A stretch of DNA of 64,000 bases from Fistulifera solaris (lineage: Eukaryota): positions 248,001-312,000 of the forward strand of contig AP026140.1 of NCBI GenBank assembly GCA_030295235.1, given 5' to 3'. Below are positions 44,608-53,179 of this stretch, in pieces; position 1 is the stretch's first letter, and each line of letters starts with the position of its first letter. The notes under the pieces were generated by a model, which searched no databases, was not told where the DNA came from, and saw only the letters and a program-made list of their open reading frames with translations. A program made the translations under genes and the position numbers.

Positions 44608-47507
44608 ATGAAGTTCTTCCTTCCGACTCGACTAGCCACGGCTAGTCTTCTTCTCTCTTCTGCTGCAGCAGCTAGCGGAAAGGCCCATGATGAAGATAGC
44701 AGCTTTTGGAACCGATTTTTGCAAACAGATGGTGCTCAGAGTTTGACACCTGCGCCCACCACGCCTCGTACCCCCGCACCCACTTCTCCTCCGTCGGAGG
44801 CTCCCTCGCAAAGTGTTGGCTGTTTGGTCGCCGTGGAGCTCACTTGCGCTACCAGCTCGGGAGCATCCTGCGACACAATTGCACCTCCGCCGTCCTTCCA
44901 GTGCTCTGCCGGTGCCGACATTGACACGCTCACATTCGCTTACCAAGGAACGCCCTGCAACCCCAGCGGCAACTCTCAGGGAACCGAGGCTACATGCGTT
45001 GACAGTGCACCGTTGACCCCTGAAACGCAGGTCACCGTTGAATGCGTTGACGCTGCCAACGGATCGCCGATGACCGTCGAGCCCAACGTCGTGGATCCCA
45101 CCATTTTCGTCGTCACTGGCCCCGGTGGTGCAATCCTCCCTGAGAAGATTACTTGCACTATCTTCGCCGCTGCTGATGACACCCAGCTTCAGACCAACAC
45201 CATCGACACGGGTGTCAACGCCCCGCTCAACCTTCAAGACACTTTCGGTGCGCTTCAACTCTTGTCATGTGATGACCTCACATGCATCGAGACACTGGCG
45301 TACAACGTGAACATGGAGAACATCGGAACAGTCATTATGGACATCACGTTGGCCTCTTTCACTTTCAACGGAATCAACGAAGACTTTTTGCCTTTCATTC
45401 CCATTAACCCGCTTGAACCTGGTCAGTCAACTTCGGTTGATCTCAGACAGCTGATTGAGATCTGTGAGGGTGGCAGCTTCGCTGCTGCAGTCAGAGTTGA
45501 GGCTACTCCTCCTAACAACGACATTTGCCAAGATCAGCAGTCCTACGAGTTCAATGTGACTCCGCCTGTACCAGTGCCAGTCCCTGTTCCCGTTCCTGTG
45601 CCGGTGCCGGTGCCCGTTCCTGCACCTCTTCCTGTGCCTGTTCCTGTTCCAGTCCCTGTGCCGGTACCTGTGCCCGCTCCTTTGCCGGTTCCTGTCCCTG
45701 TGGTCACACCGGAACCAACGGTTCCTCGAACAGAGGCTCCCGTGCCGGTCCCTGTGCCGGTGCCGGTTCCCGTTCCCGTTCCCGTTCCTGTGCCCGTTCC
45801 GGTCCCAGTCCCAGTCCCTGTGCCGGTGCCCGCCCCTGTACCTGCTCCGCTCCCGTCGCCTACTCCGGACACCTCGGCCGCTCCTACCACAGAGTGCAAC
45901 CTCTTCGTCGCAGCCGAATGTACGATTCAGTCCGGTCAGTTCCAAGGCTTCACGTGCGAGTCCCCTGGTATTGGAATCGAACCGTGCCGTCAGCGTCCTA
46001 CTGGAGCTACCATGCTTTACAATGGTGGAGACTGCTCTCAGAGTGACAACCGTCAGTTCCTCAAGTTCACTTGTCAAGATTTCGGAGACGGTCCTCCCAC
46101 TGAATTGGGAACAGAGTCTTGGATTGTTGTCACGGACTTGACAGGCCAGGTTGTTTACCACGAAGACTTTGTCCCGGTCGGAGAGAACTACTTCCTCCGT
46201 ACTCCTCCCGACCAAGAACGCTTCGTGCCTGATCAGATCATCAACATTTACAGCTCGTCGGATGCCACCGAGGCTACCTTACTTCAAACCATGCAGTACC
46301 ACAGTTCGTGCTCTAGTAACCTGGAGCTCAAGAACCGTTTCGAGCAAGTCAGTTGGTTGAGTTCATCAATGAACTCCAGGGTAATGTCACCTGCTTCAAC
46401 GACGCCAACTTTGGATTTGATATCGTTGTCCCTGTTACCATTGATGGTGATGCCGCTGAGATCATCACGCTCACGGCGCAGACCAACTTTGCCGGACTTC
46501 TTGACTTGAGTGACCAGGTGGCTGGCCAAATCGTTCAACCTGGTGACACCATCTCTGCAAGTATCACCACCTCGTTCGATTTAAGTACGCGACAGAGATA
46601 CACCTTGTTGATTCAGGTTACGGCCTCGGCGATCCCCACCGGTACTATCTGCCAAGGAACCAACTTCACCGAGTTTTTGGCTGGTAACCCGCCTCCCATT
46701 GGAAGTACAACAGAGGCACCTACCCGAGGCCCGACGATCTCGCCCGCACCCACACCTGACCCAGAGACCACCGCCTGCAGCGTCGAGGGAGAAATCATTT
46801 GCCAGACTCTTGATGATCAAGGCCGCGTTGCTAGCTTCTGTGATGATGTCGGTGATCCTAGCGAGAGCGTGTGCGGTGGTGACTTGGAGGCAACTGCTCT
46901 TGGATTCCGCTACAATGGTGGAGCCGGTTACCCTGAGCAAATTTGGTTCACGTTGGCTGGAGGTCGCACTGGAACCGTTGTCAGTCAGCGCCTGTCGGTT
47001 GGCGAGCGCGCTTATGGAGAAGGTGACTTCCGAGGAGAAGCGTTCGTTATTGTGACTGAGGTGAACGCTGCCGGTACGGGCCCTGGTGACTTTATTGAGC
47101 AGTTCCAGTTTGATACGAGCTGCACTGAAGGCGAGGAAGTTCTACGCTTGACGGATATCTATGGATCTCTTGAGCTAACTGACTATCGCAACGCTCTCGG
47201 AGTTCGATCAAGTCTCAGCAACGTCCGCATGTCCTACTTCGTGCGCAACTTGTTGGGCATTGCGATGATTGCCGAGGATGCCTTTGTCGATAGCGACTTC
47301 CAGGAGCTTGTCTCCGACTACATTCCCGACCCGACTGAAATTGAATTGGGTCCGAGACAACGCACTATTGTGCACGAGGAAACTCGTCCCGTTGATTTCG
47401 GCGCCAAGTTCGCCAATGGCGAAACTCTTTCGTTCTTTATGAATGTGACTGGTCGTGGTGAAGCTAGCTCCTTGGAGTGCTTTGACGACTTGTCGTATTC
47501 GTTTTAG
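44608..47507 (+). CDS. Secreted Cys-rich repeat protein with (Pro-Val)n linkers (cell-wall or adhesion candidate)
   Basis: Signal peptide [21 protein letters not shown], three related Cys-containing modules, PV tracts at 45563-45855; frameshift ~46342. Confidence 0.75.
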
Positions 47508-48086: not shown

Positions 48087-51000
48087 ATGAACTTTGAAAC
48101 GAGCTCTTCCGTGAGCAGTTCCGGTTTTTCATCATCGAGCTTTCGCAGCCAGTCAACAACAAGCCCATCTTTCAAGGACGCGAAACCGAAAACAACAGGA
48201 AGTGTCGGAATTATGCTCGTTGGAATAGGAGGATACAATGGAACTACTCTCTTGGCGGGTATTATGGCGCATCGCTTGAATATTACGTGGCGAGGACCGT
48301 TCGGAGATATACGGACGCCGAACTACAACGGTTGCATCACGCAATTGAACATGAAAGGCGGCGGTGTTGGGTTTAAAGATCGTGTCAAAGGACTCGCGGA
48401 TGCTACTTCTGCTGCCGTCGGCGGTTGGGTACGTCGTTTCTGCATTGCTGGCCTTGTGACTTTTTCTTGTCGGAACTCACGCAATTGTGTCAGGATATTC
48501 GACCCACCAAATGTGGAGATGCTCTTCTAGAACAACAAATATTAGACTACGATTTGGTGCGGCAAGTACAGGACGACCTTAACAAAATCAATATCTTCAA
48601 GGGGGCTTACGACAGTCGCTTCATCGGTCCTTCGCAACACGCCACCGCGACACACATTCTCACCGACTTTGAAGCCCCGAACGCATCGGAAACATTGAAA
48701 TGCATACGAGCTGATATTCGATACTTTAAATGGAAAAATGGTGTAGTAGGTCATACAACAGTCATCTGGAGTGCCAGCGTGGAGCCCAACAGTGAATTGG
48801 TGGGAACCTGGAAATCGGCCGATGAATTGCTCGCGGCGTTTGAACAAAGTGAATCCCAGCGCGGTGGACCCATTCCGCCCAGTCTTATCTACGCTACCGC
48901 CGCATTACTCGAAGGATGTTCTTTCATCAATGGTGGTTCGCAGAATACATTGGGTTGTCCTGGTCTTATGGATTTGGCACGGCAGCAACAGGGTGTTTAC
49001 TGCCTGGGAACAGATTTCAAAGCGGGACAGACAAAGTTCAAGACGGCGGCAGTGGAATATTTACGAACCATGGGATTGACTCCATTAGTCATAGCCAGTT
49101 CGAATCATTTAGGCAATAATGACATGCGGAACTTGGCTTCGGCCCCGGATACTTCGAAGGCTAAGCTGCGTGTCAAGCACGATATATTTGCTCCTTGGGA
49201 AGAAAACATTGATCATAAAGTCAGTATTATGTATACGGAGCTTATCAATGATGAAAAACGAGACTTTGTCGAATATACCAGCGCTGGATTTTTGGGGCAA
49301 CTTCACACCATGGTGACTTACACACGGGCGTCGGATAGCGTTTTGTGCGTTCCTTTGATTCTTGACGGTGCTGTCTGGTGTGATTTCTTTTCTCGGTGCA
49401 GTTGGCCTTACGAAAAAGTCGCCAAGGCATTAGCGTATCTCTTTAAGGTACCAGAAGGTGCAGCGACGGGTGCCGATCCCGGGTTTTTCGCGCAAATGCG
49501 AGAGCTCGACGCACAAGCTATGGCAGCAAACGAGAGTCGCGGTTCCGGTAAAGACGCTGGTAAGCGGGTTCGTATCATTACAAATGAAAAGGCAAAGACG
49601 GAGTGGGCGGTCCCTGAAGGAGGTGTTATTTGTGCCGGCCTAGCTTGCGTAGATATGCAACTAAACAACGCGACGGGGGGTGACGGCGGAGAAGGAATTG
49701 AGTCATTTCAAGGCGAAAAGAGTATTGGTGGTGGAAGCGTCAGTATGGCTTGCAAAACGTTGGCACGTCTTTGTCATGGTGAAGCACAGGATTCAGTGCA
49801 CGCTCAGACTCCGGCAGTACTTTCAAACATTGTTCCGATTTGCAAGATTGGTATGGATGGTACTGGAGACAAGTTGCTGAATTTGTTAGAGGCAACCGGT
49901 GAAACATGTCGGAATGTGAATGTGCGGCATTTGAAAAACAATCGCGACCCTGAAGGCAGAACTGCTTTGTCTGTCTTGCCTATCTATCGTGACGGTCGAC
50001 GCGGATGCTTCTTTGATGCGGCTTCAAACGTAACATTCTCAGCAAAGGAAATCATCTCGGACCTCAAGTCCTTGAGAAATGGAGAAAATGCGACATATGG
50101 CGCATTTCTCTTCGGCTATCCTCATTTACTTCCCGAACTTCAAGGTCAAGCACTGGCGCAAGTTTTAATTGAAGCTCGCAATGTTCTGGTGAACGGAGGA
50201 ATATGCGCTGTCGACTTAAACGGTGTACCTGAAGTCTTGTTCCAGCGAGACAAAAGAAGCGGTTTACGTGCTGATATGAAAAGTGACCCCGTTATCGGGG
50301 CCGCTTTGCAGCACACAGACATACTTCACATGAATGTAAGTTGGTATTTCTGGAATGCTAATGGCGTCCAACAAAAGAGAACCTGTACTCACGGTTTTCA
50401 ACTACAGGAAGAAGAATTGTGTCTGCTTACCGGTTGTATAATGACAGGAAATACCGTTCAGGACGATGGAACAATTCGACAAGCAGTCAAATTGTTTTTG
50501 GACGCAGGAGTAGGAATTGTTGTGGTGACCCGAGGCAAACTGGGAAGCGTCGTGTATTGCAATAGTAAACTGCGCCCCACTCTCCCGGCATCGTGGGAGG
50601 GTGGCTCTGTAGCCACACCTGCATCAATGTTGGCGAGAGGGACGATGATTAACTCCAACGGAGCTGGAGATGCGTTCACTGCAGGATTCTTGTTGGCGGC
50701 TATGCTCCGACACACTGGTGTCGATGTAAAGGACGACGCGGAAATGAGTAGTCCATCGTCGCGAGGAACTCCCACAAAAAGTCCGGCGAAAAAGCAACTA
50801 ACTCCGTATGCCTTATACATGCAAGAAAATTACCTTACTTTGAAAACGCAACTTCAAGGAGATAAGAAAGCAATATTTTCCAAATGCCATGAATTGTGGG
50901 AAAATGAATCGCCTGCTGTCAAGGCAATGTACGAACGTCGTGCCTCCGAGGAGAATAATACAGCGACCCAAACTGAGGATGTGAATTCTTCCTTTGACTC

Positions 51001-51184
51001 GAGCCAAATGATGACCGACTCAATCAAAGAACGCACTTTGTCACTGGAATCTGCCGCTACATTAGCCACTCTCATCGCCGCGCGCCACATTGATGTTTCC
51101 ACTCGAGATGACTTGCATCTGGATTTGAACACTTTACTCGAACATTGTCTGTTATTACCCAACGATGGGCTCGAAGAAATTTAA
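48087..51184 (+). CDS. Fusion protein: myo-inositol-1-phosphate synthase + PfkB-family kinase + HMG-box-like insert
   Basis: MIPS motifs [60 protein letters not shown]. PfkB motifs [26 protein letters not shown]-like [28 protein letters not shown]. Introns 48429-48493 and 50336-50407. Confidence 0.88.
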
Positions 51185-51250: not shown

Positions 51251-52382
51251 CTACAATCCCGCAAACGGATCGTCGTCTTGTTGTGATTGGGAAATACTCG
51301 TACTGGCCGTATTACCGACAAATGGGTCAAATCCGCTTTGAAATGCAGCTGTCGGTGCGGCAGTCACGGCGAATGGATCATGATAAGTGGCGGATGGAAC
51401 GGGCGCTGCTGCTGGAGCTGTCGTAAAATCCAGCAAATCATTGGATGCAAATGGATCGGATGATGGTTGGTGTGCTGGTGGGTAATTGGCTGGAGGTGCC
51501 ACATACGTGGGTGGAGGTGCCTGATACACCGGCGGTGGTGGCGGCGCCGAATAGGCAGTGGGTGCAGGATTCGAGTAAACAGATGGCGGTTGTGGTGGTG
51601 GATAATTGCTGGAGGTGGACGATGGTGCCGTACTCGCCCACGGCATACCATTCGATGGCGGTTGCGGCGATATTCGAGCCGGTTCGGTTCCCGCCGCCCC
51701 CAGGGAGGCACATCCGGGTTAACCGGTCCTCCTCCACTTTTTTCTTCTGCAACACTCTCCCCACTCAATTCCGCCAATTCCTTTTCTTTGTCGGCCCGTT
51801 TTCGTCGTATCTTTTCCACATCCCTTCGACAAATATCATAAAAGGATCGAATTTCTCGATCCGTCGGCAACCATTGTTGCGTATCTTCCAATTTTCCAGA
51901 TCCGCATACATTTTGACGCCAAATTCTTGTTTGTGTTTCGTAATTTGTCCCTGCACCATACTGAGTTCGGTGGTCAAGGCGACTTCTTTGCCGGCGTAGG
52001 CGGTGGTTTTCCCCGCATTGGCCAATTTTTCTTGCCAATTGGTGGCCGGTGCACACGAAGCGGCTTTTTCGACGCCCGTCAATTGGACTTTTTGTTTCAA
52101 TTTGCCAACTTTAATTTCGAGAGCGGCAATTTCCCGTTGGGCCGCAATGAAATGCGGTTGAATCGATGCCGTCAACAAATCGTCGGAACTGTAAAAACTG
52201 TGATGTTTCGCCAGCGGTGCGACATAATCGTACAATTGTACACCGAACGCGTATTGTCTATTGGCAAGCTCGCGATCAATGAACATAAGATCGGCTTTGC
52301 ATTTGGCTTGCATCGATGCTTGACCGGCGACTTGTCCGACGGCCGCGGCGCCTTTGATGACCGTCGACCAAAGAACGTCCAT
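51251..52382 (-). CDS. Hypothetical coiled-coil protein with duplicated FGVxxY motif and Pro-rich, DPF-containing tail
   Basis: ORFs 51765-52409 and 51251-51646 linked by frameshifts; FGVQLYD / FGVKMYAD internal repeat; several DPF motifs. Confidence 0.55.
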
Positions 52383-53179
52383 TCTTTGTAGAGTGCTGCT
52401 CGTAATCAAGGGTTACAGATGCAGCAATGCATGCAAAGCAATAAGAACGCGTGCTTCTGTTGAAAGCTAATACAGAATGCTTTGGTTGTTTGTTTCGTTT
52501 TGCGCTTTTGAACAAGAATCAAAACGCACCGCATTATTGCAAATAATTACGTGGTGTTTTTCGCCTTTAGCATTCTGTGTGGGTGTTTGTGTTGCATTAC
52601 ATGTTTTGGGAATACGGCATTCGGTACCCGGTTACTATAGCTCCTAATGTATGTTGTCCGGATTTCACCACGACTGCATTTCAGTCATGAATCAGAATGG
52701 GTCCTAAATGGCTACTAGAATTTACTATGCTTACGTCCTATCCCTACAAGAGAACCGAATCCCTAATACAAGTTAGAGAAACACAACTGACCCAATGGAC
52801 AAAATGGATGAAATCCACCGAACACCGAACCGCTGCCAGGTCAAACATGTGAATCATGTCCTATGTGCCCGACATTGATTGCAGCTCCATTCATTCGGCA
52901 AAATGATAAACTACCACTGCTTGAAAAATACAAACAATAAGATGTCACCGTTCTTTGACAGGCGCAGCATCCATCTTCTGTCCATCTTCTGGTCCAAAAG
53001 CTGAAAGGATGGTGGTGGTTCCTAGTTACTATAGGTAAAAGTGTAGATTACTTTTTTCACGACTGCCGCGTATTTCAGTCGTGAGACGCAAGAACGCGCG
53101 ACGACAACGAGAGAAATAAATGCGACGACCCTTTTGCGCATAGCCAAAAATCGAACGAATATCGGCGTAAGAAGAAACA

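Follow-up and report, generated by a model that had tools for sequence, protein, structure and literature searches.

A Fistulifera solaris gene for a predicted inositol-phosphate synthase and PfkB kinase fusion with an embedded HMG-box-like cassette

The locus, its gene model, and its transcripts

A protein-coding gene of three exons lies at 48087-51184 on the forward (+) strand of a window of the Fistulifera solaris (Eukaryota) genome, the window being the whole stretch of 64,000 nucleotides that was analyzed (assembly GCA_030295235.1, contig AP026140.1, positions 248,001 to 312,000; all coordinates given here count from its first letter). The spliced product of 986 residues (exons joined by script) combines a myo-inositol-3-phosphate synthase (MIPS)-type module, a PfkB/ribokinase-fold kinase module, and an HMG-box-like cassette that is embedded in the kinase. 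This architecture had been described in a first-pass annotation made from the sequence alone, together with a functional interpretation; the interpretation is partly supported, in that the architecture is upheld and the function is left open.

Exon 1 (48087-48428, +; residues 1-114) encodes a Ser-rich, disordered N-terminal tail (residues 1-37), after which the MIPS Rossmann fold begins (GIGGYNG), exon 2 (48494-50335, +) contributes 614 residues, and exon 3 (50408-51184, +) contributes 258 residues and the stop codon. Intron 1 (48429-48493, +; 65 nucleotides, GT..AG) and intron 2 (50336-50407, +; 72 nucleotides, GTAAGT..CAG) are both represented as spliced joints in contigs from public sequencing runs: a contig of run X2 skips the 65 nucleotides of intron 1, with 46 letters on the shorter side of the joint, and a contig of run X3 skips the 72 nucleotides of intron 2, with 21 letters on the shorter side. 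The RNA nature of the three runs (X1-X3) is a guess rather than a record, and was judged by intron skipping versus intron coverage: X2 and X3 behave like RNA because their contigs carry spliced joints, and X1 behaves like DNA because its contigs cover the introns. Removal of both introns reproduces exactly, with every residue identical, the public protein P0004 (hypothetical protein FisN_6Hh344, F. solaris, NCBI; UniRef name "inositol-3-phosphate synthase"), so that the gene model of the first-pass annotation, a single spliced frame joining MIPS to PfkB, is the annotated one. Because intron 2 is in frame and free of stop codons, the raw open reading frame (48377-51184) continues across it; the 24-residue stretch that this adds was considered as protein and rejected, as it corresponds to intron 2 (identity to P0004 after its removal, and the joint in X3).

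The junction between MIPS and PfkB falls within exon 2, with neither a stop codon nor an intron at that point. In other diatoms, transcriptome open reading frames of 1045-1149 residues carry the domains, and four of these are designated "type:complete" (P0049, P0113, P0117, and P0118). In the transcripts, which the first-pass annotation had proposed to check, both introns are seen spliced out and, in other diatoms, complete reading frames carry all domains. The locus is one expressed, intron-containing diatom gene encoding a tri-modular protein.

Substitution clusters were noted in contigs of the DNA-like run X1, at 49288-49372 and 49925-49987 (seven substitutions in one contig of 384 nucleotides and six in another). 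These look like a second, closely related gene copy, in agreement with P0102, P0119, and P0122, which are 81-89% identical homologues in the homologue listing. The genome of F. solaris is reported to be allodiploid, which would fit the second-copy reading.

The three modules and the segments that connect them

The MIPS domain (48198-49537, +; residues 38-462, with intron 1 within) was identified by Pfam, by profile searches against the PDB, and by fold. In the spliced protein, NAD_binding_5 (PF07994) scores 199.4 bits against a cutoff of 25 (E 1.3e-58) and Inos-1-P_synth (PF01658) scores 70.9 bits against a cutoff of 27 (E 1.2e-19), with matches in 14/14 and 13/14 orthologues, respectively; exon 1 scanned alone also matches NAD_binding_5 (3.5e-12). 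A profile of the 14 orthologues retrieves rice (9m53, 2.8e-72), nematode, fungal, and yeast MIPS from the PDB at 2.8e-72 to 7.5e-63, and the Bacteroides and archaeal enzymes at 9e-35 and 2e-9. An AlphaFold (AF2) model built from an alignment of 83 sequences (mean predicted local distance difference test [pLDDT] score of 78.5) superposes on Caenorhabditis elegans MIPS (1vko) with a VIA Z of 41.6 and a root-mean-square deviation (rmsd) of 2.6 over 401 aligned residues, and on archaeal MIPS (3qvw) with a Z of 39.5; Foldseek also matches the MIPS fold, at an E-value of 6.9e-28. The NHLGNND, SK..AK, DEK, SDS, and FKVP positions of yeast MIPS (1jkf) are retained in the alignment, and N318-D324, K338, K369, D395, and K432 are at least 90% conserved in the 83 diatom orthologues. 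The catalytic roles of the NHLGNND, Lys, and Asp positions are, we presume, those known from the yeast MIPS structures. By these comparisons the first module is a divergent eukaryote-type MIPS that keeps the catalytic positions of the family, in line with the core motifs that the first-pass annotation had recognized.

Ahead of the domain, the N-terminal tail (48087-48197, residues 1-37, pLDDT <50) contains a small conserved motif, approximately [ST]S.[FY]RH, which is followed by DS.H.PKT.GS before the Rossmann fold. This motif may be a regulatory or phosphorylation site.

The PfkB kinase is encoded in two parts, a main part at 49613-50719 (+; residues 488-832, with intron 2 within) and the last helices at 51038-51148 (+; residues 939-975; helix 941-956 has a pLDDT of ~96), by which the kinase fold is completed beyond the insert. 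The Pfam match of the spliced protein to PfkB (PF00294) is 45 bits against a cutoff of 25.8 (E 1.1e-11), and 14/14 orthologues match (best 2.1e-17). GG, NXXE, and GXGD are the defining motifs of the PfkB/ribokinase family. In the F. solaris gene (+), GG is encoded at 49730-49735, GAGD at 50660-50671, and intron 2 falls within NXXE (N728 at 50333-50335, EEE from 50408). All of these residues (G527 and G528; N728 and E731; G813, A814, G815, and D816) are invariant in the 83 diatom orthologues, including the GAGD that had been called intact, and the same motif residues are invariant in a set of 11 sequences that includes non-diatom and stand-alone relatives. Residues 489-975 of the model align, across the insert, with 306 of the 312 residues of Escherichia coli YdjH (3in1; Z 30.8); with Z values of 30.1 and 29.9, respectively, Arabidopsis ribokinase and pseudouridine kinase score less than one unit below YdjH. 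A profile of 19 stand-alone members of the kinase clade likewise retrieves YdjH (4.9e-30), followed by ribokinases at 1.9e-25 and weaker, and the last-helix region aligns with the C-terminal helices of insert-free relatives. From sequence and model, the second module is a kinase with a complete PfkB/ribokinase fold that belongs to a small clade of the red lineage, and it is very likely active because the predicted fold is complete and the motifs are invariant.

Homology does not name the substrate of this kinase. Its look-alikes in the Protein Atlas are generic bacterial PfkB clusters (score 0.90, within the chance range), and a scan of prokaryotic genomes returned one weak relative, a Trueperaceae PfkB (26% identity, E 7e-4), which at this distance says nothing on the substrate. 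In most pennate orthologues the kinase contains an additional acidic stretch of ~25 residues (..LD.S.MS.DD...Y.ADLE.MTP; alignment columns ~800-825), which is missing from the Fistulifera protein (between residues ~644 and 646) and from the Chaetoceros proteins.

The HMG-box (50789-50974, +; residues 856-917, ~60 residues) lies after GAGD and before the final kinase helices, which begin at 51038; the first-pass annotation had placed it inside the kinase at ~50786-50955, ahead of the final helix. Of the checks that it had proposed, Pfam places MIPS and PfkB above their cutoffs. The insert matches HMG_box at 27.3 bits when scanned alone (E 5e-6; cutoff 25.4) and falls just under that cutoff within the whole protein, and 12/14 orthologues match HMG_box at E <=0.01 (best 1.5e-6). 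The 14-orthologue profile also retrieves NHP1 (1.3e-3) and TOX (3.7e-3) from the PDB, and in a single-sequence PDB search with the insert the best match is an HMG protein (E 0.055), the remainder being noise. AF2 predicts three helices (861-876, 881-893, and 897-917) with pLDDT >90. When a model of the insert alone was submitted to Foldseek, 50/50 matches listed were HMG boxes (probability up to 0.99, template modelling score up to 0.83, rmsd 1.4-2.5 Å), among them HMGB1 box A, SSRP1, UBF box 5, BAF57, and SOX/LEF.

The box is flanked by two disordered linkers, one before it (50720-50788, +; residues 833-855, pLDDT <50 for 837-855; Ser/Pro/Thr/Lys-rich) and an acidic one after it (50975-51037, +; residues 918-938, pLDDT <50 for 916-931). 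It is 61% identical across orthologues, and the linkers 12% (before) and 10% (after). The mean frequency of the top residue is 0.74 in the box versus 0.73-0.76 in the MIPS and PfkB cores, so that conservation of this HMG-box, set within a kinase that is fused to MIPS, matches that of the enzyme cores. The core motif PY.L[FY][MI].E.[FY] is present in 108/120 homologues listed, and the HMG hallmark positions are kept, with Y862, F885, and W892 invariant and P861 at least 90% conserved across the 83 sequences. Because the box forms an island of conservation between variable linkers, it is evidently under selection, and the sequence comparisons indicate that the embedded HMG-box is real. The linker before the box (S 18%, P 11%, T 9%, K 8%; length 23-66) is Ser/Pro/Thr-rich, as had been claimed; its supposed basic character is not conserved, the median net charge being 0 (range -9 to +6) in the 83 orthologues. 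The linker after the box has a median net charge of -3.

By alignment with insert-free relatives, the cassette occupies the surface loop that joins the GAGD helix to the last PfkB helices. In these relatives, the GAGD helix (NGAGDAF..G.L.A) leads through a short loop to the helix L.LE.A...A, and the counterpart of the loop in YdjH is "EGK-N". The distance from GAGD to the C-terminus is 174-207 residues in diatoms versus 62-86 residues in 10 relatives (~100-140 residues longer). As we understand it, the loop after the GAGD helix borders the adenine pocket in ribokinase; for that reason, and by analogy, the insert could affect nucleotide access of the kinase.

The linker between the MIPS and kinase domains (49538-49612, +; residues 463-487) is also disordered (pLDDT <50 for 466-481) and carries the basic sequence KRVRII at 49562-49579. 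A corresponding motif, [KR][KR].?V[KR][IF][KRI] and typically KKRVRIR, is present in 77/83 diatom orthologues and in 0/8 non-diatom relatives, and seems, from this distribution, to have been acquired along with the HMG cassette. To our understanding, KKRVRIR fits the classical nuclear-signal pattern K-K/R-x-K/R. The C-terminal tail (51149-51184, +) ends in LEEI (residues 983-986, 51170-51181), followed by the stop codon. LEEI ends 58/83 diatom orthologues, nearly all of which end in EI (E985 and I986 are nearly invariant), and was not found in the non-diatom relatives compared; it could be a docking motif.

Upstream of the gene, at 44608-47507 (+), is what appears to be a gene for a large secreted-looking protein that contains extended (PV)n repeats and a pair of DUF7467 domains (E 6.4e-53), in which the frame changes at ~46320-46509, by an intron or a frame shift. 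Downstream, at 51251-52412 (-), is a convergent gene, the C-terminal part of which (51251-51718) is Pro/Tyr/Ala/Gln-rich; neither of its open reading frames has a Pfam match.

Distribution and stepwise origin

The first-pass annotation had also proposed a search for the same architecture in related organisms. MIPS-PfkB-HMG proteins were found in >100 diatom sequences, with the architecture kept in raphid pennate diatoms and in the centric diatom Chaetoceros, and 98/120 homologues listed carry both the MIPS and PfkB Pfam domains. A query of 516 residues comprising the kinase and HMG parts matched 216 proteins at E <=1e-3 in 1.84 billion representatives (141 at <=1e-10 and 42 at <=1e-30), and the kinase clade is judged to be very small because so few of these representatives match. 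Outside diatoms, a MIPS-PfkB fusion that lacks the HMG-box is encoded by Phaeothamnion confervicola (P0186, 857 residues), by two further non-diatom sequences (P0177, 788 residues; P0194, 832 residues), and by the brown alga Discosporangium (P0172, a truncated model). At least three lineages of ochrophytes have this kinase clade joined to MIPS. The kinase occurs alone in the raphidophyte Fibrocapsa japonica (P0150, a complete transcript) and in the red algae Porphyridium purpureum (P0182), Erythrolobus, and Timspurckia.

A stand-alone MIPS paralogue of ~470-495 residues is present in diatoms as well; it is ~55% identical to the fused domain and has the motif WSASVERP. Both forms are present in Seminavis robusta (stand-alone P0368, fused P0025), Cylindrotheca closterium (P0311, P0398), and Amphora coffeaeformis (P0375, P0057). 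The stand-alone proteins (P0368, P0311, P0354, P0307, P0375, and P0312) have a conserved C-terminal tail, G.xxGIITxEQAxxLxAL, that is missing in the fused form. For Thalassiosirales, the stand-alone MIPS alone is represented among the named matches listed, which is no evidence that the fused form is absent.

The sequences compared form a natural series, from the kinase alone (red algae, raphidophyte), to MIPS-kinase (other ochrophytes), to MIPS-kinase-HMG with the basic motif (diatoms). By this distribution, the MIPS-PfkB fusion predates both diatoms and the HMG insert, and the HMG cassette and the KKRVRIR-like motif are diatom-specific additions. The age of the fusion and its presence outside diatoms, the second, stand-alone MIPS, and the presence of the protein in databases are points beyond the first-pass annotation. 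In public databases, the proteins have automatic names such as "inositol-3-phosphate synthase", "hypothetical protein", and, in some JGI rows, "myo-inositol-1-phosphate synthase/sugar/nucleoside kinase". The full-text literature searched, which took in PMC10276504, PMC4108028, and PMC6742357 and had subscription-only papers and closed supplements outside its scope, describes neither the fusion nor the HMG insert, nor any characterized protein with this architecture; the first-pass annotation had likewise known of none. The three modules are each known; their combination is, as far as the literature was searched, an undescribed architecture with a clear stepwise origin.

Proposed function, alternatives, and known systems

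The protein may be a bifunctional inositol-phosphate enzyme, with its kinase acting in the same pathway as its MIPS, its cassette and basic motif sending a fraction to the nucleus and chromatin, and the stand-alone MIPS providing the bulk supply; we give this proposal, taken as a whole, about an even chance. The MIPS domain would convert glucose-6-phosphate to inositol-3-phosphate, and the fused kinase would transfer phosphate from adenosine triphosphate (ATP) to a metabolite of that pathway. The placing of MIPS and kinase in one pathway follows Rosetta-stone logic, because the kinase clade is repeatedly fused to MIPS. The candidate substrates are myo-inositol, the phosphorylation of which would converge on the MIPS product, and inositol-3-phosphate, the phosphorylation of which would be the first committed step of the lipid-independent route to higher inositol phosphates; these are the two likeliest substrates, neither being preferred over the other. 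The HMG cassette and the basic motif would direct part of this paralogue to the nucleus and chromatin, where inositol phosphates could be made, or their supply sensed, and bulk inositol supply would be covered by the stand-alone MIPS.

A number of observations count against this proposal, or against the assignments on which it builds. Enzyme activity, localization, and DNA binding are predictions from sequence, and KKRVRIR is a putative nuclear signal, by its fit to a consensus. In the whole-protein Pfam scan, HMG_box (PF00505) scores 22.5 bits (1.6e-4), below the gathering cutoff of 25.4, and the Foldseek E-values for the insert-only model are 0.17 or worse because the query model is short. 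DNA-binding HMG boxes are typically basic. The diatom box is not: its net charge is +1 in Fistulifera, with a median of -2 and a range of -6 to +3 across the 83 orthologues, and it is less basic than the aligned part of the HMG protein 2mrc (+4 by our own count), which weakens a simple DNA-binding reading. A serious rival is that the enzyme part acts as proposed and that the HMG-fold insert is not DNA-binding but is a protein-protein docking or autoregulatory module next to the nucleotide pocket of a cytosolic protein; we regard this as possible, if somewhat doubtful. The acidic linker that follows the non-basic box would suit such a role, as would the position of the insert after the GAGD helix, from which it could gate ATP access. 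Against it, the box keeps the hallmark positions P861, Y862, F885, and W892, KK or KKK precedes the box, the diatom-specific basic motif seems to have been gained with it, and genuine HMGB proteins also have acidic tails.

For the kinase substrate, too, there are rival candidates. The best NCBIfam match, to IolC_N, reaches 35 bits where the cutoff is 300, and the other matches are to PfkB equivalogs far below threshold; the nearest kinase structures are YdjH, ribokinase, and pseudouridine kinase, with no specific inositol signal; and no myo-inositol kinase is among the best 50 to 60 structure or profile matches listed. The kinase might therefore act on neither inositol nor an inositol phosphate, and instead either convert a hexose to the hexose-6-phosphate that feeds MIPS or act on an unrelated sugar or sugar acid, a tentative alternative that we think somewhat improbable. 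YdjH, its nearest solved relative, is reported to act on an unrelated sugar or sugar acid, and nothing on the YdjH substrate was found in the full-text literature searched. The occurrence of clade members alone in red algae and a raphidophyte also means that MIPS is not an obligatory partner. However, an identity of ~25% to YdjH is too low for transfer of a substrate, and fusion to MIPS in at least three ochrophyte lineages argues for a common pathway. A further alternative is that one catalytic domain is kept as a ligand sensor, and that the protein is mainly a metabolite-responsive regulator. The MIPS domain is only ~30-34% identical to canonical eukaryotic MIPS, and its WSASVEP and GG[AY]NG stand opposite the WTANTER and GGNNG of the aligned canonical chains, which we take to be the NAD and substrate motifs of canonical MIPS. 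In orthologue P0117, NHLGNND is degenerate (unrelated residues at alignment columns ~430-450), with the kinase and HMG modules intact, and that lineage may no longer have MIPS activity; the stand-alone paralogue could cover metabolism. Against a sensor, the catalytic positions of both domains are at least 90% conserved or invariant in the 83 orthologues, as in working enzymes, and we consider this alternative quite unlikely. WSASVEP was also considered as a mark of a dead MIPS and was rejected: because it is common to the stand-alone diatom paralogues and the non-diatom fusions, it is a trait of the clade and not of decay. Finally, no single F. solaris RNA contig from runs X1-X3 extends across the MIPS/PfkB junction or the whole gene, and the sole contig that bridges the junction is from X1, the DNA-like run. 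A merger of neighbouring genes by faulty gene prediction or assembly is nevertheless highly improbable, given that one exon runs without a stop from MIPS into PfkB, and that the homologues with both domains come from many independent assemblies and include complete transcriptome open reading frames.

The proposal of a bifunctional inositol-phosphate enzyme with a nuclear fraction can be carried further, to inositol synthesis that is hard-wired to chromatin. In other eukaryotes, inositol polyphosphates in the nucleus serve as cofactors for chromatin remodelling and for mRNA export. The cassette and KKRVRIR would then put on DNA a "factory" leading from glucose-6-phosphate through inositol-3-phosphate to a phosphorylated product, so that nuclear inositol polyphosphates would be produced on the spot, with a metabolite of central carbon metabolism as the source; the enzyme would at the same time sense sugar status for transcription, and the kinase would be the long-sought inositol-monophosphate kinase of the lipid-independent route. 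We consider this extended version unlikely. The evolutionary series allows one to ask what role the kinase has in inositol metabolism, and why diatoms gained a module of chromatin type. A kinase acting on inositol-3-phosphate would close a gap in the lipid-independent pathway to phytate, and a nuclear location would make the protein a hard-wired coupling of metabolism to chromatin in a major, genetically tractable group of marine primary producers.

Each module has counterparts in known systems. Compared with canonical MIPS (yeast Ino1, 1jki/1p1j; C. elegans, 1vko; rice, 9m53), the diatom domain has the same fold (Z 36-41.6 over ~400 residues) and the same Pfam families, but it lacks the N-terminal ~60 residues (alignments begin at chain residue ~60), is fused to a kinase, and belongs to an ochrophyte clade that also has the ~55% identical stand-alone paralogue. 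The kinase has the complete fold and the GG, NXXE, and GXGD motifs of YdjH (3h49/3in1) and ribokinases, but is ~25% identical to YdjH, has the clade-specific invariant sequences GRRGCF, FGYPHL, and DLNG, and is fused behind MIPS, with the HMG cassette separating its last helices from the rest. The box has the three-helix, L-shaped fold of HMGB-type proteins (HMGB1 box A, 4qr9/1ckt; SSRP1, 6l34; UBF box 5, 2hdz; BAF57, 7cyu), and the layout of the cassette, a Ser/Pro/Lys-rich lead, a box, and an acidic segment, resembles the lead-box-acidic tail layout of HMGB proteins. Small HMGB proteins have acidic tails that modulate binding. The diatom box differs in being inside an enzyme domain rather than a chromatin protein, in not being basic, and in the borderline significance of its Pfam and Foldseek matches.

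For the pairing of MIPS with a kinase, the closest parallel is with myo-inositol kinases. Thermococcus pairs MIPS with a ribokinase-family inositol 3-kinase, both giving the same product; a kinase that makes inositol-3-phosphate alongside MIPS is the pathway logic that MI3K and plant MIK would share with the diatom protein. The diatom kinase belongs to the same superfamily as Thermococcus MI3K (4XF7), Thermotoga TM0415, and plant MIK/lpa3, but has no specific sequence or fold affinity to them among the best 50 to 60 matches listed. That ribokinase-family myo-inositol 3-kinases exist, including the Thermococcus enzyme, is stated in PMC5931981. For the proposed chromatin link, the parallel is with Arabidopsis MIPS1, which, according to PMC3597657, moves into the nucleus and binds the chromatin of its own promoter; it also interacts with histone methyltransferases. 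Arabidopsis MIPS1 connects inositol synthesis with chromatin, the same idea as is proposed for the diatom protein, but has neither a kinase nor an HMG box; in the diatom protein the link, a prediction from sequence, would be hard-wired as a domain.

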